DNA of 63,637 nt, counting the filler, from Bacteriovoracaceae bacterium (lineage in GTDB: Bacteria > Bdellovibrionota > Bacteriovoracia > Bacteriovoracales > Bacteriovoracaceae): NCBI GenBank assembly GCA_018649885.1. It is 6 parts of 6 records of this genome, joined end to end, with 100 filler letters (N's around TTAATTAATTAA, not from the genome) between each part and the next. Parts side by side here need not be neighbours in the genome. Positions count along the whole stretch, not along the records: positions 24,290 to 37,463 come from JABIHA010000042.1; 5 more parts are not named here. The stretch is one strand, 5' to 3'. Of this stretch, positions 24,290 through 37,463 are shown in pieces. Position 1 is the first letter of the stretch. Each line of letters begins with the position of its first letter. The notes under the pieces are model-generated. The model was not told the DNA's origin, ran no database searches, and worked only from the letters and a program-made list of their open reading frames with translations. The position numbers and the translations under genes were made by a program.

Positions 24290-24407
24290 AACACAATATA
24301 AAGCTGAAAGAGCAATTGTGACTGTCCCTCTACTAGTATTACCCATCCCAAAATCCCAAATTAATGAAATAGGAACGATTGAACTCATAAACAATGCAGA
24401 GAGCGAT
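24290..24407 (+). repeat. 118-bp direct terminal repeat of fragment 2 (left copy)
   Basis: Identical to 37346-37463. Confidence 0.95.
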
Positions 24408-24460
24408 GGTGGCGAGGATTGGATACCAACGATGTTAAATAATTGAATCATAATTATCAT
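24290..24460 (-). CDS. Small hydrophobic protein (possible orphan immunity protein), cut by the contig edge
   Basis: Hydrophobic ORF; the right-end copy continues it in frame to a stop at 37292 (..ALYCV-LIWVKSRSKKNHKVFSS*). Confidence 0.45.
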
Positions 24461-24559
24461 CAGAGAAAGTAGGAAACTATAGAGAAAATATTGAACTTTA
24501 AATTCATTTACTATGTGTTGTACCTAAGTCCCTAGTCTATATTTGTAGCAAGTCTAATG

Positions 24560-25009
24560 TTATTTTTTTTCAATTTCACTAAGCAAAGTATTTTGCTGGG
24601 AATTATTATCCAGTACTATTGAAATTTCTGGTTCATTGAATTCTCTGGCCTGTTCTTTGATTATGTCAGAAGTGATTTCTGCGAAAGTTTTTATTTTGTC
24701 TGGTTGGTCAATTAATAATTTATTACTATTTTTCAAAAATAGAATGATATATTTGGCATCTAGCCAGTCTAGGTCTCCAATGCACTCATGTAGCGCATCC
24801 CAGTTTCTACCAAAATACTCAGGGAACCCAAGTTCAGTTGAAAATGTGCTGAATAGGTTTTGTTCAGTATTGCACTGGAGACAATCGATTTCAAAAAAGG
24901 ATATAGCTTCGACATTTAGTAATGTTTTTTTTAAATCAGCACTTTTTCCTTCGAAGGCACAAATAGTGCTAGGTGATCGAATAAGGTTAATTCTACTAAT
25001 TGTTTCCAT
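24560..25009 (-). CDS. Barstar family immunity protein (orphan)
   Basis: LGFPEYFGRNWDALHECIGDL barstar signature. Confidence 0.88.
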   Translation of the reverse strand: METISRINLIRSPSTICAFEGKSADLKKTLLNVEAISFFEIDCLQCNTEQNLFSTFSTELGFPEYFGRNWDALHECIGDLDWLDAKYIILFLKNSNKLLIDQPDKIKTFAEITSDIIKEQAREFNEPEISIVLDNNSQQNTLLSEIEKK

Positions 25010-25012
25010 ATT

Positions 25013-25048
25013 TTAATCCATAGGTTTAAATGTATTGTAGTGATCAGG
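25013..25048 (-). pseudogene. Remnant C-terminus of a barnase/RNase Sa-like toxin
   Basis: Reads PDHYNTFKPMD* and ends 3 nt before the barstar ATG; DHY.TF is the C-terminal signature of this RNase family. Confidence 0.55.
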
Positions 25049-25092
25049 GAGACCATGGTTTTACGGTACGGATGTCTCTCTCTAAGTTTTGC

Positions 25093-25455
25093 TCATAAAG
25101 TCATTTTAAAACTCTTAGCAAAAATTTTCAGATTGCTATTGCTAGAGTTGGTATTAATATAAAATTCTTTCAAATTAGTGAGATCAACTCCAAGCTTTTC
25201 CCATTCTAGCTTGATCTCTTTTAGTTGATCACTACAATCTATAACTTCTGCTTCTAGAATAGCTTCTGGAGCTATAATGCCCATATAAAGGTCAAGTGAA
25301 GCTTTGTAGCAATCTTCAAAAACGATTATATTCCGTTCATCGTTGGGCCACTTGATTAGAATTTCAATAATATCTTTTGTTCCTGGGGATTCTCTATTAA
25401 TTTTTATTTGTAAAATTTCTGAATCATGCCAATCGTAATCATTAAAACTTTTCAT
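25093..25455 (-). CDS. Putative orphan immunity protein
   Basis: Acidic 120-aa ORF (F..YDWHDS.I motif) inside the RHS downstream array; start at ATG 25455. Confidence 0.65.
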   Translation of the reverse strand: MKSFNDYDWHDSEILQIKINRESPGTKDIIEILIKWPNDERNIIVFEDCYKASLDLYMGIIAPEAILEAEVIDCSDQLKEIKLEWEKLGVDLTNLKEFYINTNSSNSNLKIFAKSFKMTL

Positions 25456-25696
25456 ATTAAAATCCTGGGTTTTTATCAGCTGGCCTTGGGCTATAGTGTG
25501 TACCTTTACCATCTTTATGATAATAGCTATAGTTCGGGCCTTTTTTTCTTTTTTTCTGTTACCACAATTTTTTCCTAAATTGATCTTTGGGACGACCGTC
25601 ATCCCAGATTGGCCTATCCCGTTTACCTTTTTCCCAATGTTTTTATCTTTATATACTCCCCAATGATGCTGAAGTGGTCAACGCATGTTAATTGGA

Positions 25697-26026
25697 TCAA
25701 AATTGTGTTACTTCATGAGGGAAGTCTTCTTTGTATTGCTCTAAAGATAATTTGATTTTCAAAAGAATTTCTCGTCCTTCTGTAATTGAAATAGCATCAT
25801 TAACTCTGTCAAAATGATGAGTAGCTGCATCGAAAAAATGGTCAATAAATGAAATTACTTTTTTTAGAGTGTGATGTTGCTGTATTTCGGTAATTTCAGC
25901 TTGTGTAGCTATTTCATCTAGTAAAATTAAAGGTGCTACATTATCAAAATCTCCCTTATCGAGAGATTCTAAGGATTCGTTAATAATTTTATTAATTAAA
26001 TGGTAGTGTCTTTGGTATTCTTTCAT
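25697..26026 (-). CDS. Putative cognate immunity protein of the RHS toxin
   Basis: Starts 14 nt after the toxin stop with an AAGGAG RBS; 109 aa, acidic, probably helical. Confidence 0.7.
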   Translation of the reverse strand: MKEYQRHYHLINKIINESLESLDKGDFDNVAPLILLDEIATQAEITEIQQHHTLKKVISFIDHFFDAATHHFDRVNDAISITEGREILLKIKLSLEQYKEDFPHEVTQF

Positions 26027-26040
26027 GCTTAGCTCCTTCA

Positions 26041-29000
26041 CTAAAATCTTTTCCACAATCCTTTCCAACCCCAGGAGTCTTTTGTTTGCCATGGTCTATG
26101 TAGTCCAATGCCTCCATTTCCCCTTCTGTGATAGTGAAGAAGTTTCTTTCCTTTGGCAAAATTAGCAAGACCTTTAGCACCCTTGCCAGCTGATGGAAGT
26201 TGTTGATAATCAAGTCTTGGCTTTGAACCATAGCTATTTCCCTTACTAAGAGTCCATCCATTTTTTTTCCCGGTAGCATTTTTCAATGGCTTCATTGATA
26301 ATTTATTTAAACCTAATAAGTTACCTAGAATCTTTCCTAAGCCAATTCCTATAAATGTTTTCGCAGCAACACCCAGCATACGGTCACTACCATCCCAGGG
26401 GTGTTCTCCTGCCATCATGTTCCCAGGTGTCGGCTTAGCACTAGAGTGGTCAATAATTCTATTTCTATCTACCTTGGCAATCCCTGGATCACATCCAGCA
26501 CAGTGCCCACTCGGATCAACAAACCCAAGCGGATCCCCACCCGCATAGCGAGTCGAGTCCCAATTCCCAGGAGTCATAGCAATCTTAGTAGGATTATATT
26601 TCACCAGAGGATCAACTGTCAGCCACTGTTTTGCATAACTCGAATAGATTCTACTTTTTGAGTGATAAAGAGGTTGAGAGCTCTTAGTGAGTAGAGGATT
26701 TTCCAACAACAGTGCAAAACTAAAAGCAACTAGCTGTTCTAGCTTTTCAGCTCCTATCCCAAGAGCACCAACAAGATAGTCCTTACCTTCTGGATAAGAG
26801 ACTTCCTTTTTACCATGTGCAGAAAACTCCCGGTAAAATAAAACCTTCCCTTGCTTTGGATCTACAAGCCCTACAACCGAGCCCAACTCATCTGATAATG
26901 GAATAAAAGGAACAGAGTTAATATAAAGAGCAAGAGGAAGCCCAAGGTGTCGAACAAGCTTAAGATGATGAGACTTAACTAAAATCTCTCCATCACCCAA
27001 GACTACAAAACAGCTCTTACTATCAACAGATAAACTTACACCCTTAGGACAACCTCCCAGAAAACCACCTGAGAGATCAAAGTAGTTGACGATTTTGCTT
27101 CCACTCTTTGTGATTTGAACGGGCAAGTTCCTAGCGTATTTAACCTGCAACCCCTTATGCGATTGAAGGTTTCCAGAAGAATCCCTTTGAACAGTTTTCT
27201 TACTGTAATCCAAATGAAAAGGATGATTGTCATAACTAAAATGATTTTCTAGGTGAGCACCACCCAAAAGAGAATCAGATCTTTTAATCGTTTTTCGGTG
27301 ATGGTCTTTTTCAATTACTCTTTGAAAAATATTCTTCTCACCCCGAAGATACCTAATGCTTAGAATATCTCCAAAAATGGGATCTCTTTCAATCTCCATG
27401 CTATGAGAATTTGCAAAGCTTACCTTTTTAAGAAAAAGATCTTTTTGGTATTCAATATTTGTGACTAAGTTTCCACCAACTAAAAGACCAGCAGAATACT
27501 CATAAGTAAGATCCAGCTTGTGATCACCAAATTGGACTTTCTCCCCATGGACTTGTCCATAATCATCGTATCGAAGCTCTTTACTATAAATACCTGCAGA
27601 GATTAACGAGAGCCTCTCAAGTGTGTCATAGCTGTAGAAAATTCCAAATTCATCTCCACTGAAGTAATCAGTCATACTTACTGAGCTCAAGAGATCTTTG
27701 TCATACTCAAACTTAAAATCAAGACCTGTATTTGAAGTGGACTTGGGTCTTAAATATTGATCAAAAATGGCGACTTCACCATGAGGATAAACTTTTCTTA
27801 CTGAGTTTGACTGAATAGATGTTTTGAAAAACTCTTCATTATAGATTCCAAGCTTAGGATCATCACTTTTTGTGAATGAGAGCATATTGTTTTTGTCATA
27901 GGCGTATTCAATGTCTCCAACCTTGGTGATCTCTCCCAAGTAATTTGACTCAATAACAACTCTTTCGTCTCCAAGCTGTGAGTACAGTGGAGTTCCAAGT
28001 GTATTTTTACAAACCTTTTCAAAGGCCTTGTCATTAAATGAATCAAAAGGACGTGAGTACCGGCAAAGACCGGTGTAGATATGTTTATTCAGGGGCAGCT
28101 TTTCTGAAGGTTTATCCATTGCTCTTTTATAAGAGTAAGTAGGCCTTCCTGAGTGATCATACAGATAGGTAGCTTCGATATCATTTTGTTTAGCCTCTTC
28201 AAACTTTGCAGAGACCGTAGTGAGAAGATCTTTTTTAGAGTTAAACTCTGATTTTGCAGAAAAATACTTCTTCCCAGAAATGTCAAAAATTTCTTGGACT
28301 GCATGACCAAAACTGTTGAGCTCAATTTGTTTGTCTACCCCGTATTCGTGTACAAAAAGGCTTTTCTCCAAACAAATACCCATTTCACTCTCACTGCACT
28401 TTATTTGGGAAGGGGGTGTGACTTTCATCCCTAAGGATTTCTTGTCGGCCGAAAAACTAACTGATTCAAGAAGAATTCCATCCACAGTGTAGGCATTTTG
28501 AGTTGTGATTCCAGAGTCACTTATCTGCCTTGTATGGCCTTGGTCCAAGTTGTCATATTCAAAACTCAATATTTTCCCAAGGCCCTCACTTTGAGAGGGA
28601 AGTGTTGTACTCCCAAGGTAGTGAAAGCTACTAAGCCCTCCTGGAAGTTTCTGTACCAGGCTTGTTCTTCCTCTTGAGTCATAGATATACTCTGTTTGGA
28701 TATCACCCTTAGAAATATTCAACAAATTTTTGAGATCCTCACTATATCTATAATAAGTAGGGGCCTCAATCACTTTAGCATTTGATGAGACACTGTGAAT
28801 ACTTTGTCTCTTTTTCAAATGAAGAGCAGGGTTAAATAAATCAACATAAGAAGAGCTCTTAAATAAGAGATAGGTGTTTTCATCATACACATTTTCGGGA
28901 ATATTTCCATTTCCTTGCTCAAGAAAAACACTCCTAGACTTAAGTGGAATAAAATTCGCAGACCAATTTTCATATTCAAATTTTTGATCCGTAACATGAA

Positions 29001-31581
29001 CCCACTTGCCGTCAATTCCATTCAAAAATTCCGTGTGAACAATATGCTTATAGGGATGAACCCTTTTTCCATCGAGCTCTTTATATAACCAAATAGTTTT
29101 TATTTCTTTAAATTGTGACTGAGCTCCGGACCCTTTCATTTGAATGTTTTTCAGCATTCCATGAAGCCTTCCTCTTTTAGCAAAGTAGATGGCCTCTAAG
29201 TCGATGTCACTTGTAAAGTTTCGTACAATCTGCAGCTTTTCTCGCCCTGGAATGACAACACTCTCTGTTGTTTTTCTAAAACCAGTAAACGCCAGAGACT
29301 TAGGGTCTTTATCGATTGTTTGATAGATAAATTCTCTTTCTTCTCTGAGGTGTTTCTCCTCAGGAATTTTGCTGATTTTCTGTGCTACAGGAATGGCATT
29401 TTTAACAGTGTATTTGACACTCTTTCTTCCACCAAATGGACTGTAGAGCTCACTTAAAAGCTTATATCTCGGAGTGGGGGTAATAATTTTTGCCTGATTG
29501 CCAACTAACTGGTGGAGCTTTCCACTAATTTGATTTGAAATTTGCACTGTCTTAGAAAATACAGAAAACTTCCCATTAAAATCGTGATCAATAATAGAAA
29601 GTGGGCCATTAAAACTAACTAAACCAGAGGCCTCAAAAAAACTAGAAAGTAATTCGTTTGAAACCTCAATCTTATGGAAGATCCCACTGCTGCCACCAAG
29701 ATACAAACTCTTTGAAACTAAGATATCAATTTTACCATCTTTATTAGCATCCAGTAAAAAACTATGCTGATGGCAATTAAAAGGAGCATCAGCCCTATTG
29801 AAAGTTGTGCTTCCAACAGCTGTAGCAACTTTTTTTGATTCCGGCTGCTCTTTATAGCTTTGATAGTATATAATCCCTGGCTTACGAGAGCTTTGCTCAA
29901 ATATATTTGTGTATTCACTTCCACTAGCGCCGCTTTCGCCAACAATATTTAAAATCGAAAGAGCAAGGTTACTCAAATAGCTCTTATCATCTCCCGACAC
30001 CTTCTTTCTTTTTCTTTCAAGACCATAGTCTCCCTGACAACTGATAATTTCTTTTTGACCATCACCATTTAAGTCTACAAAGTACTGTCCACTAGAAAAA
30101 CTCTCAAAGTGAAGCTCTTCAACTAACCAGCCTTTTTGACGCCCATTTTTTATATAGGCATGGTATTGAACAGGATCAGGAAAGCTACTAATTGAAAGAT
30201 CACTATCTTGCTCATACACAATCTTGCCACCACTACCGACGATCGCTCGCTCAACTTTTAGTGGCACAGTCATACTGTTGAGCCTCTTCAGAAATGTACT
30301 AGGCCTATGGGCAAGTGGAATTCTAGCTTTCTTATGCTCTTTATCCTCAGCATAAGGAAAATTGAGAACAGTATATTTTAAATAATCGTTTTTAGCTTTT
30401 CTATCAATGGTGAGACGCTCATCTCTGCCATCACCATTTAAGTCTCGATACATGGTGATTAGGTTATCATTTTTTGGAAGAGTGACTATCTCATAGAGTT
30501 TTGCTGCATCTTCTGACTCGCTCTTTAATTGGGGTGAGGTAAACGTTCTAATAGTGTTGTCTTTACTATTTATATTTTTTGACAGGGAATACTCTTCATT
30601 TTCAAAGGCCTGTATACCTTGGTACGATCCTTGAAAAATCGGTAAAACCCCATTTCTGTACCCAACAAAATTCAAGTAATCATCACTATACTTAAATTGA
30701 ATTGTCTTAGAATTTCCATTTTTAAACGACAAATTTAGCTCATTAAACTTTTTTGGAAGGAGTACATGTATATTTCCAAGAGAAGTAGGGATCTCCCTAT
30801 TGCCTTCACCCTCAAAAGTTAATTTATAAATAGAATCATCAGGATAAAGAGATTTCAACACACCATTTTGATATTCAAAGTGCATGGTACTTCCAAAATG
30901 ATCAACAATCTTTCGTACCAGCCCATCAGCACCAAAAACCTGTGAAATCCCTGAAGTCGTCTGATAGACATAACCTTTAGTTTCACTACCACTTACAAAT
31001 TTATAAACGATAGAAAAATCGCCATCTATCAAAGGCCTATATAAAAACGCCTGAAGTTCACTACCATGATCAAGCCCAAGAAACTCTTGAGCCACTTTTT
31101 GCGAAGGCAATGTATAATTAACGGGAACAAAGATAGCACTTGAGCCTACACCCGTGAGTAATATCTCATCTTTTCCAAACCCACTTTGCTCCTGAAGACT
31201 AGGAATCCCTGCTTTCCATCCAATCCCAAAACCTTCATTTACTTGATTGAGAGAATTATAGCTAAAGCGAAGAGAATTAAAACCAAGTGTAGTAGGGGGA
31301 AGAGGGATTTCAAAACTATGTTTGAGTGCCCCTCTATTTGTATTTACTTCGAGCACAGGATTAAAAAAGAAGGAATCATTCTTAAATTGACTAGCTCCCT
31401 TTCCAAAAGATCCATTAAACCCTTGAAAAACTACTTGAGGCCCTAAATTGATACCTGTACTACTTCCTGAACCAGATGAAGAGGAACCACTATCATTTCC
31501 TGGATTGTCATGTTTCCCAGGAGCTGCCATCAAAACTGATAGGCAGCTAAACATAGAGATGAAAAGTGCTACTAATTTCAC
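26041..31581 (-). CDS. Sec-exported SpvB/FG-GAP/RHS-repeat polymorphic toxin
   Basis: Signal peptide; SpvB-like start (G.L..SFEIPLPP..L.FSYNS..GFGIGW); DLNGDG/DANKDG FG-GAP motifs; YD repeats; RHS core R.Y....QWLTVDP..RYAGGDPLGFVDPSG; ~154-aa basic C-terminal domain. Confidence 0.9.
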   Translation of the reverse strand: MKLVALFISMFSCLSVLMAAPGKHDNPGNDSGSSSSGSGSSTGINLGPQVVFQGFNGSFGKGASQFKNDSFFFNPVLEVNTNRGALKHSFEIPLPPTTLGFNSLRFSYNSLNQVNEGFGIGWKAGIPSLQEQSGFGKDEILLTGVGSSAIFVPVNYTLPSQKVAQEFLGLDHGSELQAFLYRPLIDGDFSIVYKFVSGSETKGYVYQTTSGISQVFGADGLVRKIVDHFGSTMHFEYQNGVLKSLYPDDSIYKLTFEGEGNREIPTSLGNIHVLLPKKFNELNLSFKNGNSKTIQFKYSDDYLNFVGYRNGVLPIFQGSYQGIQAFENEEYSLSKNINSKDNTIRTFTSPQLKSESEDAAKLYEIVTLPKNDNLITMYRDLNGDGRDERLTIDRKAKNDYLKYTVLNFPYAEDKEHKKARIPLAHRPSTFLKRLNSMTVPLKVERAIVGSGGKIVYEQDSDLSISSFPDPVQYHAYIKNGRQKGWLVEELHFESFSSGQYFVDLNGDGQKEIISCQGDYGLERKRKKVSGDDKSYLSNLALSILNIVGESGASGSEYTNIFEQSSRKPGIIYYQSYKEQPESKKVATAVGSTTFNRADAPFNCHQHSFLLDANKDGKIDILVSKSLYLGGSSGIFHKIEVSNELLSSFFEASGLVSFNGPLSIIDHDFNGKFSVFSKTVQISNQISGKLHQLVGNQAKIITPTPRYKLLSELYSPFGGRKSVKYTVKNAIPVAQKISKIPEEKHLREEREFIYQTIDKDPKSLAFTGFRKTTESVVIPGREKLQIVRNFTSDIDLEAIYFAKRGRLHGMLKNIQMKGSGAQSQFKEIKTIWLYKELDGKRVHPYKHIVHTEFLNGIDGKWVHVTDQKFEYENWSANFIPLKSRSVFLEQGNGNIPENVYDENTYLLFKSSSYVDLFNPALHLKKRQSIHSVSSNAKVIEAPTYYRYSEDLKNLLNISKGDIQTEYIYDSRGRTSLVQKLPGGLSSFHYLGSTTLPSQSEGLGKILSFEYDNLDQGHTRQISDSGITTQNAYTVDGILLESVSFSADKKSLGMKVTPPSQIKCSESEMGICLEKSLFVHEYGVDKQIELNSFGHAVQEIFDISGKKYFSAKSEFNSKKDLLTTVSAKFEEAKQNDIEATYLYDHSGRPTYSYKRAMDKPSEKLPLNKHIYTGLCRYSRPFDSFNDKAFEKVCKNTLGTPLYSQLGDERVVIESNYLGEITKVGDIEYAYDKNNMLSFTKSDDPKLGIYNEEFFKTSIQSNSVRKVYPHGEVAIFDQYLRPKSTSNTGLDFKFEYDKDLLSSVSMTDYFSGDEFGIFYSYDTLERLSLISAGIYSKELRYDDYGQVHGEKVQFGDHKLDLTYEYSAGLLVGGNLVTNIEYQKDLFLKKVSFANSHSMEIERDPIFGDILSIRYLRGEKNIFQRVIEKDHHRKTIKRSDSLLGGAHLENHFSYDNHPFHLDYSKKTVQRDSSGNLQSHKGLQVKYARNLPVQITKSGSKIVNYFDLSGGFLGGCPKGVSLSVDSKSCFVVLGDGEILVKSHHLKLVRHLGLPLALYINSVPFIPLSDELGSVVGLVDPKQGKVLFYREFSAHGKKEVSYPEGKDYLVGALGIGAEKLEQLVAFSFALLLENPLLTKSSQPLYHSKSRIYSSYAKQWLTVDPLVKYNPTKIAMTPGNWDSTRYAGGDPLGFVDPSGHCAGCDPGIAKVDRNRIIDHSSAKPTPGNMMAGEHPWDGSDRMLGVAAKTFIGIGLGKILGNLLGLNKLSMKPLKNATGKKNGWTLSKGNSYGSKPRLDYQQLPSAGKGAKGLANFAKGKKLLHYHRRGNGGIGLHRPWQTKDSWGWKGLWKRF

Positions 31582-34286
31582 TCACTCACTCCATTACTTC
31601 CGGCCGCTCCAACTTCACCAAATAGTGGCTCAGGGGAGTTATTATTTCCACAAGCTCCTGGAGCGCCAGCTTCACCACCTCTACCAGGTGCCGTGAATCT
31701 ATTAAATAAAACTTTATGCAACTCCTTTTCATTTATATAATCAGAATCCTTTGTGATAATTAACTCATTGCCAGCAGCACCAACCCCACCATTTCCACCT
31801 CGCCCATTTTTTTTATAAGCAAAAACGGTATCAATTGTAAGTACATTACTTCGAGCTCCTGCATGACGTGGATCCTGAACTCCTCCACATCTTCTCTTAG
31901 GTGCCTGATCAGCTCGTATCTCACGATCGATGACTGATTCGGGGTACTGCCAGCTACGCCCGTTTACACTATTTTCTACAGACGATTTTCCATAACATCC
32001 TGCTTGTCCCGCCATCCTTCCAAGCACCCAACCTGTTAGTAATGCATAACCTTCATCGACACCACCACGACAATAAGGACTATCAAAACCTTGAGAACCG
32101 TTTCCTCCCTGACCTCCCACTGAATATAGAAGAGGAATTGATTTTATTTCCTGAACTTGTTGTAGTTCAATAGTCCCTGCGCGACTTCCATTACTGCCTG
32201 TTGCCTGTTGTTCAGGATTGACAATTGAAGAGTGGTTGAGAGTGAACTTCCCAAAGCACCCCACATAGCTAGCTGGTTGTGGGTAATTACAATAGTAATT
32301 CCCAGGATTTATATTGGCTTGATGAACCATGTGTCTTGTAGGGTGTGTACCACTATTGCTATCATATTCCTTAGAGACCGTTTCTCCTTTTAATCCTGAA
32401 GTATCTATCCACAACTCATGAACTTCAGAAACATTTGATAGAGTCACATTTTTCCCTGGAGCATAAATCATTGCCAGTGGACTCATCTTCAACTTTCCAT
32501 TAAAAATAATCATATCTTTTTCAATGAAGTATATACCAGGCTTAGTAAATGTGATGTTACAACTTGAGCTATCTGCACTTGATGAACAAAGATTGATTTC
32601 AATTTTAGATGCCTTTTCATTTTCTTCGACAGCACCCCTAAGACCTTCTTTGCCATGTAAGCTTCTCATCGAGCTTCTTCCATCAACTTCTTTATCCTTA
32701 TATTCTTTATTTACAATTGAATCCATTGTAAGTGATTTATTGAATTTAAAATTCAGCGTTTCAACAAGATCACGCCTTATTTCTTCGTATAACGGAATTA
32801 ACTCATTACTTGGATCTTCAACCGGTTGATAGTTAGAAAAGTTTTTATACTCAATAAAATGTTTTTTAAATTCAACTTTGTAGGCCCCTAGTTGAAATAG
32901 GTAAGCCTGACGTTGCCTGGCCGGAAGATTGATAATGAGGCCATCCTCTTCTTCAGTAGGTGTACTCGCAGTAAAAATTCCTGCACGATCTTCAATCCCT
33001 TTTTCTACTTGAAGAAGGTAGTCGTTTGAATTCATTGCAAAAGGATAGAGTTTTTCACTTACATCTCTTTTAGTAAGCATAAGCCCTTTATTATAATAAA
33101 TGGCCGTATAAGGGTGAGTGATTAATTGGGTGATTTTATCCTTTGTAAGATCGTCTCCATTTAATATAGAGGTGTAATGCGAGCGCTTTACTCCGTAGTT
33201 ACAATATCTAACTCCATAAGATGTATTGCCAATCCTGTGAGTGAGCAGAAACATAAGCTTATGCATTTTTTCTTCAAAGGCCTCAATATATGTATTCTTA
33301 TTGAAGTTTGCCTCCCAATGTCTGCGTGGAAGATCAAATAGGGTGTTGTATAAATCTATTGCCTTAAAGGCCTTCTTTGTTAGTCTCTTTTCTGATTTTG
33401 GGTGGCCAAGAGAGCATATCCCAAATTGTGTGTGCTCTTTAACAGAATCAAGCATAGTTTTTGTAATCAAAACATCTGCCGGGTTTTTCACAAGCTGTGT
33501 TAGTGCATTTTGATAAAGCTCCTGATCTTTCAGTGAATATCCTCTTTGAAGATATACTGATGAAAGTAGGGGAGATAAAAGTTTGGCCATCAATTGATCT
33601 GGGAAAATATTTTTATATAGGTGAGATCTAAAAAAGATAGTAGAGCTACTCTTACTCTCGTCTATATAATGCTCAATTCTTTTTCTGATATACTCGGCTA
33701 TTTTAGGTTCAACTTTTTTAATATCTTCATCGCTATAAAGCTCTTCAATCATAGAAATAATGACTCTTTCATGACGATCAGAAATAGTCGCAACACCTGC
33801 TATCATGGCATCTATGGGTCTCACCGAAGTTGAGTCAAACATCAATGATTTATCTTCGATTTTTATCCCAGTCATTGCTCCTACCGCTTGATAAGGATTT
33901 ACCGTGATTAGTTTCGCTAAACGCTTCCCAAATTCACGGGCCTTTTTATTTGTCAGTCTGATAGAGACATTTTGATTTTCTTCACTTACTTCCGAAAGCT
34001 TACTTTCGAGTACCAACAACGACTCAATTTGGGAGTCTGTAGCACTCTTGAAATCCGACATTTGCTGCTGCCAAAATTCAAGAACTTCCTTTTTTTCTTC
34101 AGGCTCTTTTTCTTCACAATCAGCTAGCTCGCACTTAGCTTGATCTTTTAGATCCGTCGTAGTCTCAACTTCTACTTCTACAATTTCTTTGACCTTCACT
34201 TCCTTCGTACACGATAGTCCAAGTACCAAAGCAAGCACAATAAGAAGCATCTTGTTTGTTACATTAATTCTAGATTCACTTTTCAT
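31578..34286 (-). CDS. Large lipoprotein with Gly-rich (GxGGxG) C-terminal repeats, coupled to the RHS gene
   Basis: Lipobox-like LVLGLSC; GGQGGNG, GRGGNGG and GRGGEAG repeats; 4-bp GTGA overlap with the RHS start. Confidence 0.8.
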   Translation of the reverse strand: MKSESRINVTNKMLLIVLALVLGLSCTKEVKVKEIVEVEVETTTDLKDQAKCELADCEEKEPEEKKEVLEFWQQQMSDFKSATDSQIESLLVLESKLSEVSEENQNVSIRLTNKKAREFGKRLAKLITVNPYQAVGAMTGIKIEDKSLMFDSTSVRPIDAMIAGVATISDRHERVIISMIEELYSDEDIKKVEPKIAEYIRKRIEHYIDESKSSSTIFFRSHLYKNIFPDQLMAKLLSPLLSSVYLQRGYSLKDQELYQNALTQLVKNPADVLITKTMLDSVKEHTQFGICSLGHPKSEKRLTKKAFKAIDLYNTLFDLPRRHWEANFNKNTYIEAFEEKMHKLMFLLTHRIGNTSYGVRYCNYGVKRSHYTSILNGDDLTKDKITQLITHPYTAIYYNKGLMLTKRDVSEKLYPFAMNSNDYLLQVEKGIEDRAGIFTASTPTEEEDGLIINLPARQRQAYLFQLGAYKVEFKKHFIEYKNFSNYQPVEDPSNELIPLYEEIRRDLVETLNFKFNKSLTMDSIVNKEYKDKEVDGRSSMRSLHGKEGLRGAVEENEKASKIEINLCSSSADSSSCNITFTKPGIYFIEKDMIIFNGKLKMSPLAMIYAPGKNVTLSNVSEVHELWIDTSGLKGETVSKEYDSNSGTHPTRHMVHQANINPGNYYCNYPQPASYVGCFGKFTLNHSSIVNPEQQATGSNGSRAGTIELQQVQEIKSIPLLYSVGGQGGNGSQGFDSPYCRGGVDEGYALLTGWVLGRMAGQAGCYGKSSVENSVNGRSWQYPESVIDREIRADQAPKRRCGGVQDPRHAGARSNVLTIDTVFAYKKNGRGGNGGVGAAGNELIITKDSDYINEKELHKVLFNRFTAPGRGGEAGAPGACGNNNSPEPLFGEVGAAGSNGVSE

Positions 34287-34540
34287 AAAAACCCCAATAT
34301 TTGTTTGTATTAACATTCATTTTTTACGCAAACTTCCAAATGACACACATTTGGAGTTCAACTTGTTACTAGATTTTGTAGATAACAAATATTACCTTCA
34401 ATCCTAAGGCCGCTGAAAATTCGCTATAGAATTTGAAAAATCTATAGACTTTAAGCGCAGCTCTACACTCTCAAGTTACTAAAATGAGTTAATAATTTAT
34501 TAACTAAATTTAAACTTTTTCAAAAATCCAACTACCTACG

Positions 34541-35161
34541 CTAGGGTAGTGGAAATATCAGCCTAATCTCGGTTCCAACCCCTTCAATAGAAGTGATGGA
34601 CATATTTCCCCCAGATTTATACATATACGTTCTCGCATGGCTTAACCCAAGGCCTTGACCTCTGGTTTTCCCCCATGAAAAAGAACTCTGATTCAGCTTC
34701 TCCAATATTTCACAAGGAATGCCCTTCCCGTTATCAGAAACCTTCACGATTACCGAATCCTTGTCACATTTAAGTGCTATATGTACTACTTTTTTTTCAT
34801 TATCTGATATGGCCTCAATGGCGTTATTGATTATATTTGATAAAACTCTTTTAAACCCAAACTCACTAACCTGAAGCCTCGTAACCGGGCCAGTCTTACT
34901 AAGAGTAATATTTTGAAAGTCGTGCTCGACTATCTTCTCACTAATAATTTCCTGCAAGGCCCTCCCCACACAAAACCTATTAAACTTTTTTCCTTTCTCC
35001 ATACATCTAAAGGATGTCGTAATATCCACTAACCTCTTCAAGGCCAACCCTGCTATATCCTTCCCTTGCACACTATCCATCTGCTCAGTACCAATTATTG
35101 AATCCAAAACTGCAAGCGGCGAACTAATATCATGCAAAAACTGCGCAACTTCCCTACTCAT
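34541..35161 (-). CDS. Minimal histidine kinase (HisKA + HATPase, no sensor domain)
   Basis: AQFLHDISSPL, RVLSNIINNA, DNGKGI, GQGLGL and GTEI motifs; GAGGGG RBS before ATG 35161. Confidence 0.85.
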   Translation of the reverse strand: MSREVAQFLHDISSPLAVLDSIIGTEQMDSVQGKDIAGLALKRLVDITTSFRCMEKGKKFNRFCVGRALQEIISEKIVEHDFQNITLSKTGPVTRLQVSEFGFKRVLSNIINNAIEAISDNEKKVVHIALKCDKDSVIVKVSDNGKGIPCEILEKLNQSSFSWGKTRGQGLGLSHARTYMYKSGGNMSITSIEGVGTEIRLIFPLP

Positions 35162-35266
35162 ACAAAATCCCCTCATTTCGATTTTCATTTTGCACACAAA
35201 ACCCCTCCGTCTTATGTGCAAAATGTATATATTTACGAACAAAACATTGTAGTCAAAACTTCAATC

Positions 35267-35449
35267 CTATACATCCCCTGTAGATCTTGTCTTGACTCCA
35301 CCGCCTCCAGTACCTGTAGATCGAATCTCTTTCGGACCCTCAAGATCATCATTCCCATTTCCTCTTTTACCAATCGCTTCATCTCGATCACCATCAGCAA
35401 ATACGTTCACAGTCATTAATAAGCCCATACATAAAATTAAAATCTTCAT
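35267..35449 (-). CDS. Small secreted Gly-rich peptide precursor (paralog A)
   Basis: GGAG RBS; MKILILCMGLLMTVNVFA signal; mature part DGDRD..RSTGTGGGG..RSTGDV. Confidence 0.75.
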   Translation of the reverse strand: MKILILCMGLLMTVNVFADGDRDEAIGKRGNGNDDLEGPKEIRSTGTGGGGVKTRSTGDV

Positions 35450-35505
35450 TTCTACTCCTAATTTTTCATTTAAAATATTTATTGAAAACTTGCTTGCCTT
35501 AAGGT

Positions 35506-35682
35506 CTATGCACCACGTACACTTCTTTCCCCAGGACCACCGTCACCAGTAGATCTAGTTCCTTGTATCCCACCACCAGAGTCACCTCCAATTTGCTTTC
35601 CACCTATGTCTTTGTCTCTATCGCCTTTTGCAAAAACATTTAAGGCCAAAATCATACTCAAACATAAAATTAAAAATTTCAT
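35506..35682 (-). CDS. Small secreted Gly-rich peptide precursor (paralog B), absent from the ORF track
   Basis: GGAGAGG RBS; translates to MKFLILCLSMILALNVFA-KGDRDKDIGGKQIGGDSGGGIQGTRSTGDGGPGERSVRGA* (58 aa), clearly paralogous to 35267-35449. Confidence 0.75.
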   Translation of the reverse strand: MKFLILCLSMILALNVFAKGDRDKDIGGKQIGGDSGGGIQGTRSTGDGGPGERSVRGA

Positions 35683-35764
35683 ATCCTCTCCATTTGTTAA
35701 GTTTGTAACGCTACATAATTGCAGTTGCGTTTATTTTTCAATGAAAAAAAAAGTTTTTGAATAA

Positions 35765-35878
35765 TTTGTCCATCAGGCTGATGGACTTTTACATTTCGAG
35801 AGGAACCAAATTCCTTCAACTGATTGAAAATCTAATTTTTTTGTCCATCAGGCCGAGAGATTTCATCATTGTGATGGA
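35765..35878. promoter_or_regulatory. Candidate operator sites in the divergent promoter region
   Basis: Perfect palindrome GTCCATCAG-G-CTGATGGAC (35768-35786) and a second TTTGTCCATCAGGC copy (35840-35853). Confidence 0.55.
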
Positions 35879-36133
35879 TTAAGAATGAAATCTAAAAAGT
35901 TAGAAAAATAATTTGATGAAATATGAGTCAGTATTTTTCAAAGCACAGTAGGCTATAGAATTATTCAAAATTGAAAAACTTAGCTTCTAAAATGGTAAAT
36001 TTTTTCTAAACTTTAATTAACCAACGATATTTCAACGACTTACAATGCAAAATAATTACAAATAATGCGCCGAAGGGTGTCTTCTTCTATTCGCTTCTAT
36101 ATAACAAGCCAACTAAAAAAATGGGAGCTCCTA

Positions 36134-36916
36134 GTGGAGTTGAGTCAAGAGACTTTGTGCCAATTGCTGGCAGACAAGGTGAGGGCATACAAAGTCCAAA
36201 ATCCTGAAAAACATTCATATACGTATATGGCTGGAAGAGCTGGCGTCTCAGCGAGCTTTGTAGAAAGGGCTTATAAAAAACAATTAACTTCATTTGATCC
36301 AAAAAGAACCGTATCTCTTGCAAAATTTGTATGCACCGAAGAAGAAACTAAATCAGTGGCAGACTATTTCGCAGACAAGTTTATCCAAGAAAATTCAGAT
36401 ATTCTACAAGATGCAATTTACGAAAAATTTATAAAGAAAAATCAAAGCGGGATTCCTGCTGAATTAAATAGACTTCTCGTTCAAGAGAATACCGCTATTA
36501 TATATAACTTATCTTGCCTTGGAGCTGGGGTTTCGGAAGAAACTGCACAAAAGCTTTTTGGGGTTTCAGGATTAGAGGCTTTAGAATCACTTTCATCTAA
36601 AGGGTTTATAAAAAAAGAAGAAGACCGTTTCAAGGGCCAATATGATAATATTTCAGCTAGTTTTGAGGCTGTTAAGGCTCAGCTAGGATTTTTTTCAAAG
36701 TTGTATAAGCCACAAAATGTTGGAAAGAAGAAAAATTATGCTTTTATCATAACTCAAAAAATGAGTCATGATGGTATTATAGAAGCTCAAGAGGCTTACC
36801 GTGAATTTCACACTAGAATTAGAAATATTAAAGATAGAAATCCTGGAGAAAATGATCACTTCATGGTCGGCTTTATGGATAACTTTCTCACAGAAGAGAA
36901 AGGGGGAATAAAATGA
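36134..36916 (+). CDS. HTH regulator, TIGR02147/DUF4423-like
   Basis: N-terminal HTH (SYTYMAGRAGVSASFVER), central winged-helix-like part (ALESLSSKGFIK), C-terminal 'EF..RI' region; GGGAG RBS before GTG 36134. Confidence 0.65.
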   Translation: MELSQETLCQLLADKVRAYKVQNPEKHSYTYMAGRAGVSASFVERAYKKQLTSFDPKRTVSLAKFVCTEEETKSVADYFADKFIQENSDILQDAIYEKFIKKNQSGIPAELNRLLVQENTAIIYNLSCLGAGVSEETAQKLFGVSGLEALESLSSKGFIKKEEDRFKGQYDNISASFEAVKAQLGFFSKLYKPQNVGKKKNYAFIITQKMSHDGIIEAQEAYREFHTRIRNIKDRNPGENDHFMVGFMDNFLTEEKGGIK

Positions 36917-37227
36917 AATTTTCTTATATGGCCCCAGTTTTACTAATTTTTTCACTTAGCGTTCAGGCAAACTCCACTTTGCTAAGGTTACTTGATGAAA
37001 AAGTAGATCGTGTCATTTTAAAATCAAGAGTTAGCTACACACCTCAGGAAATTAAGAAAGTATATTCTCGAATCAGAGGAAATGAAGATCTATCAGGCAT
37101 AGATTCTATTGAACTGTATGATGGCACTACAATTACAAAGAAAGAAATTCGCAGTGTTGAATCATATGATGGTCGTGACTTCATGCAAATGGCTAAAAGT
37201 GGTGGCCAAGATAGTGGTGGCGGTTGA
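36913..37227 (+). CDS. Small secreted protein ending in GGQDSGGG
   Basis: ATGA overlap with the regulator, signal peptide ending VQA, IDSIELYDG motif. Confidence 0.75.
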   Translation: MKFSYMAPVLLIFSLSVQANSTLLRLLDEKVDRVILKSRVSYTPQEIKKVYSRIRGNEDLSGIDSIELYDGTTITKKEIRSVESYDGRDFMQMAKSGGQDSGGG

Positions 37228-37345
37228 TATAGCCGACCTGAGCCTATACTTGCGCATAATTTTTCTATGAACTGAGCTTTGGATTAATTTTTCAGCTACT
37301 AAAAACCTTGTGATTTTTCTTACTACGACTTTTCACCCAGATAAG

Positions 37346-37463
37346 AACACAATATAAAGCTGAAAGAGCAATTGTGACTGTCCCTCTACTAGTATTACCC
37401 ATCCCAAAATCCCAAATTAATGAAATAGGAACGATTGAACTCATAAACAATGCAGAGAGCGAT
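37346..37463 (+). repeat. 118-bp direct terminal repeat of fragment 2 (right copy)
   Basis: Identical to 24290-24407. Confidence 0.95.

Follow-up and report, generated by a model that had tools for sequence, protein, structure and literature searches.

In PMC10075063, secreted and re-imported peptide signals with cytoplasmic receptors are described from Gram-positive bacteria and their mobile elements, and the RRNPP class is delimited by a Sec-secreted propeptide of 10 to 100 residues, a receptor of 250 to 500 residues with tetratricopeptide repeats (TPRs), adjacency of the two genes, and re-import of the peptide. The present analysis concerns a gene cassette of Bacteriovoracaceae bacterium (assembly GCA_018649885.1; genome of 5.45 Mb) that pairs a DNA-binding regulator with an exported protein of small size bearing a short glycine-rich motif. 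The window, i.e., the whole stretch of DNA analyzed (63,637 nucleotides), consists of several joined contigs, and the finding lies entirely within contig C86 (13,174 bp; positions 24290–37463). The cassette is real, conserved, and apparently undescribed; translational coupling, gene fusion, motif conservation, a DNA-binding fold, and a recurrent divergent layout characterize it.

The cassette resembles the RRNPP systems (Rap-Phr, PlcR-PapR, NprR-NprX, and AimR-AimP) in that a cytoplasmic Xre-type helix-turn-helix (HTH) regulator of about 260 residues, a size within the receptor range, is encoded beside a small protein with Sec-type export features. Gene adjacency is also shared, with an ATGA overlap between the regulator and partner genes and with two small peptide genes, A and B, directly divergent from them; the peptides have 58–60 residues, and the conserved partner has 104 (82–192 in aligned relatives). 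A further likeness is that one regulator cassette, on contig C32, heads a conjugation operon, and conjugation is a kind of output that Rap-Phr systems control. The differences are that the C-terminal half of the regulator consists of a winged helix and a β-α-β element, that the host is Gram-negative, that the partner folds into a domain of its own and often forms one protein with the regulator, and that a ligand role is proposed here. Lacking TPRs, the regulator is not an RRNPP receptor.

Three other described groups invite comparison. Proteins of the TIGR02147 (Fsuc_second)/DUF4423 (PF14394) family are of similar size, have an N-terminal HTH, and are expanded in Bdellovibrionota, and TIGR02147 genes of this genome also precede exported proteins with a glycine motif (GNGG); the partners in the family described here are small, with GGG-terminal or GExTGAG motifs, whereas those of TIGR02147 are large with an N-terminal GNGG. 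The ArsR-like protein Kfla_6221 (4G6Q) resembles regulator residues 106–251, leaves the N-terminal Xre HTH uncovered, and offers no function to transfer. The membrane-anchored one-component regulators ToxR and CadC have the same order of DNA-binding domain, hydrophobic segment, and exported domain as the fused homologues described below; they differ in their DNA-binding fold, and in most members of the present family regulator and partner are separate proteins, the latter with a signal peptide that looks cleavable. A search of mostly open-access literature found no functional study of TIGR02147/DUF4423 and nothing on the cassette. In the DUF4423/Bdellovibrio context, a table in PMC12546842 reports Bd3700 as raised during growth in prey.

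Results

The regulator is coupled to an exported protein with a glycine motif

The partner comprises a predicted signal peptide, a small domain with an I-x-L-x-[DN]-G hairpin, and GGQDSGGG immediately before the stop codon. Each of the five regulator paralogues in this genome overlaps a downstream open reading frame (ORF) of 82–104 residues that has a predicted signal peptide and ends in GGG-stop. Codon strings for GGG-stop in any frame number 37 genome-wide (69 for the reversed-pattern control), and five of the 37 are the ends of these partners; simple arithmetic from the genome count gives an expectation of ∼0.002 such ends per locus, although the five loci include one pair of close paralogues. 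Among relatives, 54 matches were listed and 28 loci retrieved, of which 27 were examined (all but L038), with the motif judged by eye. The coupled ORF carried a strict G-x-x-x-G-x-G at 17 loci and the motif one position off at three (L023, L047, and L048), and all four loci examined later also had it. Motif type differs between groups of loci: one displays GE(F/L/V)TG(A/I)G, frequently in two copies, either behind the signal peptide or at an internal position, and another displays GGG-terminal forms. The motif is free in position, being N-terminal, internal, or C-terminal on the partner, and the coupled ORF at L023 is a signal peptide plus two motif copies and nothing more. Outside the motif, the partners of relatives are 16–34% identical to that of the window. 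In these comparisons, what is conserved is the motif rather than the partner domain. An ESM Atlas search with the partner gave no usable match.

Seven of the 14 closest non-self homologues of the regulator are fusions that join the regulator, a hydrophobic segment, and a partner-like domain with the glycine motif (e.g., GGDSGGG, GGDAGGG, or GGTDGGGG). Six of them are clear (P0002, P0003, P0004, P0007, P0009, and P0011) and one, P0015, is degenerate; they stem from several sources, with four members in one cluster. Just two GTDB matches at E ≤1e-22 were obtained among 236 family genomes, and both are fusions. The recurrence of in-frame fusions argues that the regulator and partner products are functionally tied. 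In the L092 fusion, no ribosome site is evident at the in-frame GTG that precedes the hydrophobic segment, which suggests a single polypeptide; P0002, P0004, and P0009 keep an internal Met before that segment, and separate synthesis of the partner may persist in these cases. Linkage of glycine-motif ORFs to such regulators had been set beforehand as a refutation test of the initial annotation, and it held in this genome (5/5), in the relatives (20/27), and through fusions among the closest homologues (7/14).

The regulator belongs to a sister family of TIGR02147/DUF4423

The AlphaFold2 (AF2) model of the regulator (predicted local distance difference test score, pLDDT, of 91) shows a winged helix and β strands, not a helical repeat; the Xre-type HTH occupies approximately residues 1–85, and the winged helix with β-α-β element forms the C-terminal half. 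The top solved-structure match was 4G6Q over residues 106–251 (Z 10.1, root mean square deviation 5.1, 139 aligned residues, 12% identity), and Foldseek against the PDB returned nothing at E ≤0.001, only HTH, MarR, and Xre fragments. TPR families were absent from Pfam and NCBIfam scans of the regulator and 30 homologues; no TPR protein occurred in either structural match list, a result that by itself weighs neither way. The AimR model touched two of 80 aligned relatives, with E 0.007 at best.

A full phmmer scan provided 103 relatives, of which the 80 unfused ones made up the alignment and profile A1. The regulator had no Pfam or NCBIfam family match, TIGR02147 and DUF4423 included (cut-off E 0.1), and the 30 TIGR02147 matches of this genome do not include it; membership in TIGR02147/DUF4423 was rejected. 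The A1 profile matched TIGR02147 genes over positions 1–235 of 258 (E 1e-7 to 6e-6), and the ESM Atlas feature neighbours of the regulator were DUF4423 clusters (0.92–0.93). Because A1 aligns to TIGR02147 genes, yet the TIGR02147 model matches just one of the 80 relatives (E 0.0018), the family is a distant sister of TIGR02147/DUF4423 within a common superfamily. The label "TIGR02147-like" in the initial annotation is therefore apt as remote homology (E ∼1e-7) and inapt as membership. Strong regulator matches were found in 18 of 24 genomes of the same family versus none of 16 sampled genomes of other families. A word-index homologue search returned nothing beyond the regulator itself, and a pattern scan of 233 genome-contig stretches gave no relative. 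Since the ESM Atlas neighbours are mostly Bdellovibrionota and a partner homologue is named Halobacteriovorax by its source, which places homologues in cultured Halobacteriovorax, the host family of the cassette is probably Bacteriovoracaceae, predatory Bdellovibrionota.

In genera g4, g13, and g14, a single in-frame stop interrupts several of the regulator matches close to the C-terminus; of these, L028 and L032 were examined, and both were without a motif-bearing partner. The exported proteins found opposite one regulator group (L021 and L022) are similar to the N-terminal part of P0095, a predicted protein in which a DUF4360 match (E 2e-4) is joined to the regulator.

Predicted binding of the partner

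When two regulator copies were co-folded with the mature partner, the interface score ipSAE was 0.49 compared to 0.01 for the best control; the runs agreed in at least 61% of contacts, and the partner pLDDT was at least 64. In calibration, 116 of 157 solved complexes and two of 215 mismatches reached the mark, those at ≤0.60 being 18 of the 157 solved complexes and both mismatches, and the regulator job is unlike the calibration set. The model lends weak support to binding of the mature partner by the regulator, with a value above all controls that lies in a weak band. The AF2 fusion model was uninformative as a docking test, since it does not address the dimer site and its tail is unstructured. 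Six Opp/Dpp-type binding proteins are encoded in the genome.

The divergent peptides and the promoter region

The two tandem small ORFs of the initial annotation are present with their GDRD, RSTG, GGDSGGG, and TGGGG blocks (Table 1), each just downstream of a Shine-Dalgarno-like purine run. Both peptides have, by eye, a Sec-type N-terminus that ends in NVFA, an A-x-A-like site. They are 48% identical overall, and their signal peptides, previously called near-identical, have 10 of 18 residues in common and are better termed similar. Peptide A shares 73% identity with a peptide of the C138 cassette and 65% with one of the C32 cassette. A six-peptide profile retrieved exactly six genes in the genome, at C86, C32, and C138 and all opposite such regulators, with a seventh match (E 0.97) being noise. 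The family repeats the partner-type motif (GDSGGG, GQDSGGG, and GDDGSGGG) between basic residues. The GNGNDDLEG block of peptide A (window positions 35320–35350), which fits the RTX calcium-binding nonapeptide consensus in single copy, is kept in three paralogous peptides.

The candidate operator TCCATCA-N3-TGATGGA has its sole perfect genome copy at this locus and a one-mismatch copy 93 nucleotides away. Six sites with at most one mismatch occur genome-wide, two of them here, for a pattern chosen after being seen. The perfect copy also scores as a terminator-like hairpin and could be one. A pattern check of other regulator loci did not find the palindrome; its absence there is expected if operators differ per regulator, but provides no support. 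A Sigma-70 promoter scan yielded six sites versus 6.2 by chance.

Table 1. Coordinates of the cassette and its surroundings in the window.
Feature	Position	Strand	Observations
Regulator, 260 residues, undescribed sister family of TIGR02147/DUF4423 (predicted)	36134..36916	+	GTG start at 36134; fold model, profiles
Exported partner, translationally coupled, 104 residues, C-terminal GGQDSGGG	36913..37227	+	ATGA overlap with regulator; counterparts at 5/5 paralogues
Candidate operator array, TCCATCA-N3-TGATGGA	35768..35878	.	Perfect copy 35769–35785; half site from 35843; one-mismatch copy 35862–35878
Peptide B, 58 residues, GDRD, GGDSGGG, and RSTGDGG blocks	35506..35682	-	Predicted signal peptide; six-member family
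Peptide A, 60 residues, GDRD, RGNGNDDLEGPKEIR, and TGTGGGG blocks	35267..35449	-	Predicted signal peptide; paralogous peptides
Stand-alone histidine kinase core, 206 residues	34541..35161	-	H-box FLHDISSPL; HATPase_c (E 8e-19)
Lipoprotein-like protein, 912 residues, Gly-rich C-terminus, local cargo	31578..34316	-	No Pfam family
RHS/SpvB-like polymorphic-toxin-type protein, local cargo	26041..31581	-	TIGR03696 E 3e-5, below cut-off
Duplicated 3' piece of EamA-like gene	37227..37463		Similarity; copy also at 24290–24522, contig start

Cargo divergent from the regulator

The kinase was recognized at the outset as lacking a sensor domain, and nothing indeed precedes its H-box, neither a sensor nor a membrane segment. 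Other genera, too, have kinases of similarly short length in divergent orientation to regulators of this family. Among the matches listed, 20 short kinases (open frames ≤275 residues) occur in 13 genomes, several of which are from one genus: three are divergent from a regulator at <0.5 kb, two lie within 2–3 kb, six within 5.7–13.5 kb (unrelated genes intervene in the one distant case examined), and nine have no regulator listed on the same contig. A sensor-less kinase thus recurs near the regulator family. The G065 kinase (34% identical) was rejected as a co-inherited orthologue, since many family kinases score as high and position alone links it.

The RHS-like protein has weak FG-GAP and SpvB matches, and its C-terminal 139 residues match no Pfam family. 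Three small ORFs follow the gene, one of which (24560–25009) is a Barstar-family match over the cut-off. The RHS assignment is a putative one that draws on sub-threshold matches and these immunity-like ORFs; of the RHS toxin originally annotated, an RHS-like gene with immunity-like ORFs remains, while the TIGR03696 match is below its cut-off. A terminator-like hairpin at 34531–34550 (three such found versus 1.1 by chance) may separate the kinase from the lipoprotein and RHS genes. An RHS toxin at a regulator cassette was seen at C86 only, and the toxin link is local. Toxin expression had been proposed as the controlled output; as a general output it was abandoned, for conjugation or kinase genes stand behind the paralogous cassettes, and here a terminator-like hairpin precedes the lipoprotein/RHS genes. 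At L062 (154–2441), an RHS/YD-repeat gene is followed by three tandem signal-peptide ORFs of 56–59 residues with one Cys and a K-A-Q/E-Q end, an arrangement that we presume to recall the Bdellovibrio hit locus.

On contig C32, two lipoprotein genes come after the peptides, then a TrbC/VirB2 pilin that exceeds the cut-off and a weak TraL match. This segment (L068:1–2425) is the start of an F-type conjugation operon led by a lipoprotein family of 570–610 residues, with a Phage_rep_O protein on the same contig, and the lead lipoprotein family also precedes pilin-like genes in another genus. At C138 and at a locus in another genus (G015), the same lead lipoprotein as at C32 is found opposite a regulator. 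A general link between the regulator and conjugation was unsupported: four of four other genomes have a sigma-54-type response regulator upstream of the lead lipoprotein, and this regulator family was absent from the stretches examined upstream of it there. The sigma-54-type regulator, an alternative control module for these genes, precedes the lead lipoprotein at L083, L084, L086, and L088, and an ORF of 64–68 residues follows it in three. At L039 (2495–3747), a small exported ORF, a DUF5819 gene, and a membrane protein gene lie divergently from another regulator of the family under study; this presumably recalls the SdpABC-type peptide toxin operons.

Setting of the locus

Similarity to the EamA-like gene begins at the stop codon of the partner ORF. 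Its 3' piece lies at both ends of C86; the gene extends further on contig C69, and contig C5 closes with the piece as well (L070 and L071). These copies suggest that the 13-kb C86 locus is an islet between direct repeats. On C5, the EamA-like piece comes after toxin-antitoxin-like genes, possibly a tandem islet array at one insertion site. The neighbouring contig in the window, C87 (37564–44003), holds a prophage- or satellite-like block whose translations, judged by eye, include an integrase fragment, repressor, excisionase-like ORF, primase, DUF3987-like replication genes, and a zinc-ribbon repeat protein.

Discussion

We tentatively favor peptide signaling, in which the motif would be the ligand of the regulator, released and re-imported as a signal. 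The regulator would bind the TCCATCA-N3-TGATGGA palindromes as a dimer and control the divergent genes. The partner would be exported by Sec, a Gly-rich peptide of 7–9 residues would be clipped from it next to basic residues, and this peptide would return via an Opp/Dpp-type transporter to set regulator activity. Peptides A and B, as first divergent genes that encode little but motif copies, might amplify or compete with the signal. The output would be whichever divergent cargo is present, namely the kinase, lipoprotein, and RHS toxin here and the conjugation operon at C32. Such a system would work in RRNPP-like fashion with an unrelated receptor fold in a diderm bacterium.

Several observations weigh against peptide signaling. 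The motif is weak at two of the 27 relatives' loci (L031 and L045) and none was seen at five (L028, L032, L040, L042, and L043); the counts refer to regulator-coupled ORFs rather than to exported proteins at large, and covariation of motif group with regulator may be plain co-descent. A Gly-rich 7-mer offers few residues for specificity. Unlike Phr-type propeptides, the partner has its own folded domain (pLDDT ∼80 in the AF2 model of a fusion), and the motif tail (residues 362–367) has pLDDT <50 in that model. Being in the weak band and without an interface, the co-fold does not establish the motif as the contact. Opp/Dpp genes are common, and 11 of 14 control genomes have them. Large exported proteins (492 residues at L011 and 344 at L020) and lipoproteins at C32 and C138 bear the motif as well, behind their signal peptide or lipobox. 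Finally, a profile search of 150 family genomes did not find the peptide A/B family (of six weak matches, L062 and L063 were examined and are unrelated, and the other four were unread), so the divergent peptides look like a lineage-specific addition. The earlier proposal of a peptide ligand accordingly shifts from these peptides to the coupled 104-residue protein, the conserved candidate.

It is rather unlikely, in our estimate, that the motif is instead a tag for export, processing, or surface attachment and that the regulator controls genes for tagged proteins and never sees the motif. In large proteins the motif sits directly behind the signal peptide or lipobox, which fits this explanation. 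So does the position of five of 22 GNGG-type matches 75–126 nucleotides downstream of TIGR02147 matches on the same strand, where the N-terminus of a coupled protein is expected; the one examined is an ORF, with GNGG after the signal peptide of the 492-residue protein at L011. The partner folds alone with its motif tail unstructured in the fusion model, and the regulator and mature partner reside on opposite sides of the inner membrane. A tag leaves unexplained, however, the repeated in-frame fusion to the regulator, the free motif position and the ORFs that are a signal peptide plus motif, and the co-fold score above all controls.

We consider it improbable that the cassette senses export in cis, with the partner, still in the cytoplasm, binding the regulator ahead of export, or anchoring it at the membrane in fused forms, until export or cleavage of the signal anchor frees the regulator. 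The switch would then report the state of the secretion machinery, not cell density, in a logic that parallels FlgM. Strict translational coupling through ATGA overlaps would ensure one-to-one synthesis, the fusions exist and that at L092 suggests one polypeptide, and the co-fold used the whole mature partner. Separate divergent multi-motif peptides are not readily explained by export sensing, and the internal Met of P0002, P0004, and P0009 means that the partner may be made separately. That the Gly runs are low-complexity tails in a chance neighbourhood is very improbable and already largely refuted by the linkage counts: neither SGGG-type (267 versus 269 in the control) nor GGG-stop strings (37 versus 69) are enriched genome-wide, but five of five partners end in GGG-stop against ∼0.002 expected per locus, and genera whose partners have otherwise diverged to 16–34% identity still retain the motif.

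A wider reading, which we regard as doubtful, is that predatory Bdellovibrionota possess secreted-peptide switches independent of RRNPP, with DUF4423-like receptors, motif variants specific to each group, and micro-peptides that tune conjugation, kinase, and toxin genes. If this reading holds, it would give a function to a large unexplained superfamily that has about 28 TIGR02147 genes plus five sister-family genes in one genome, and non-TPR peptide signaling in Gram-negative predators would represent a convergent communication system. Even if the motif is a tag or the cassette senses export, the cassette would provide the first concrete handle on DUF4423/TIGR02147, in the form of a candidate ligand and operator together with natural fusions.

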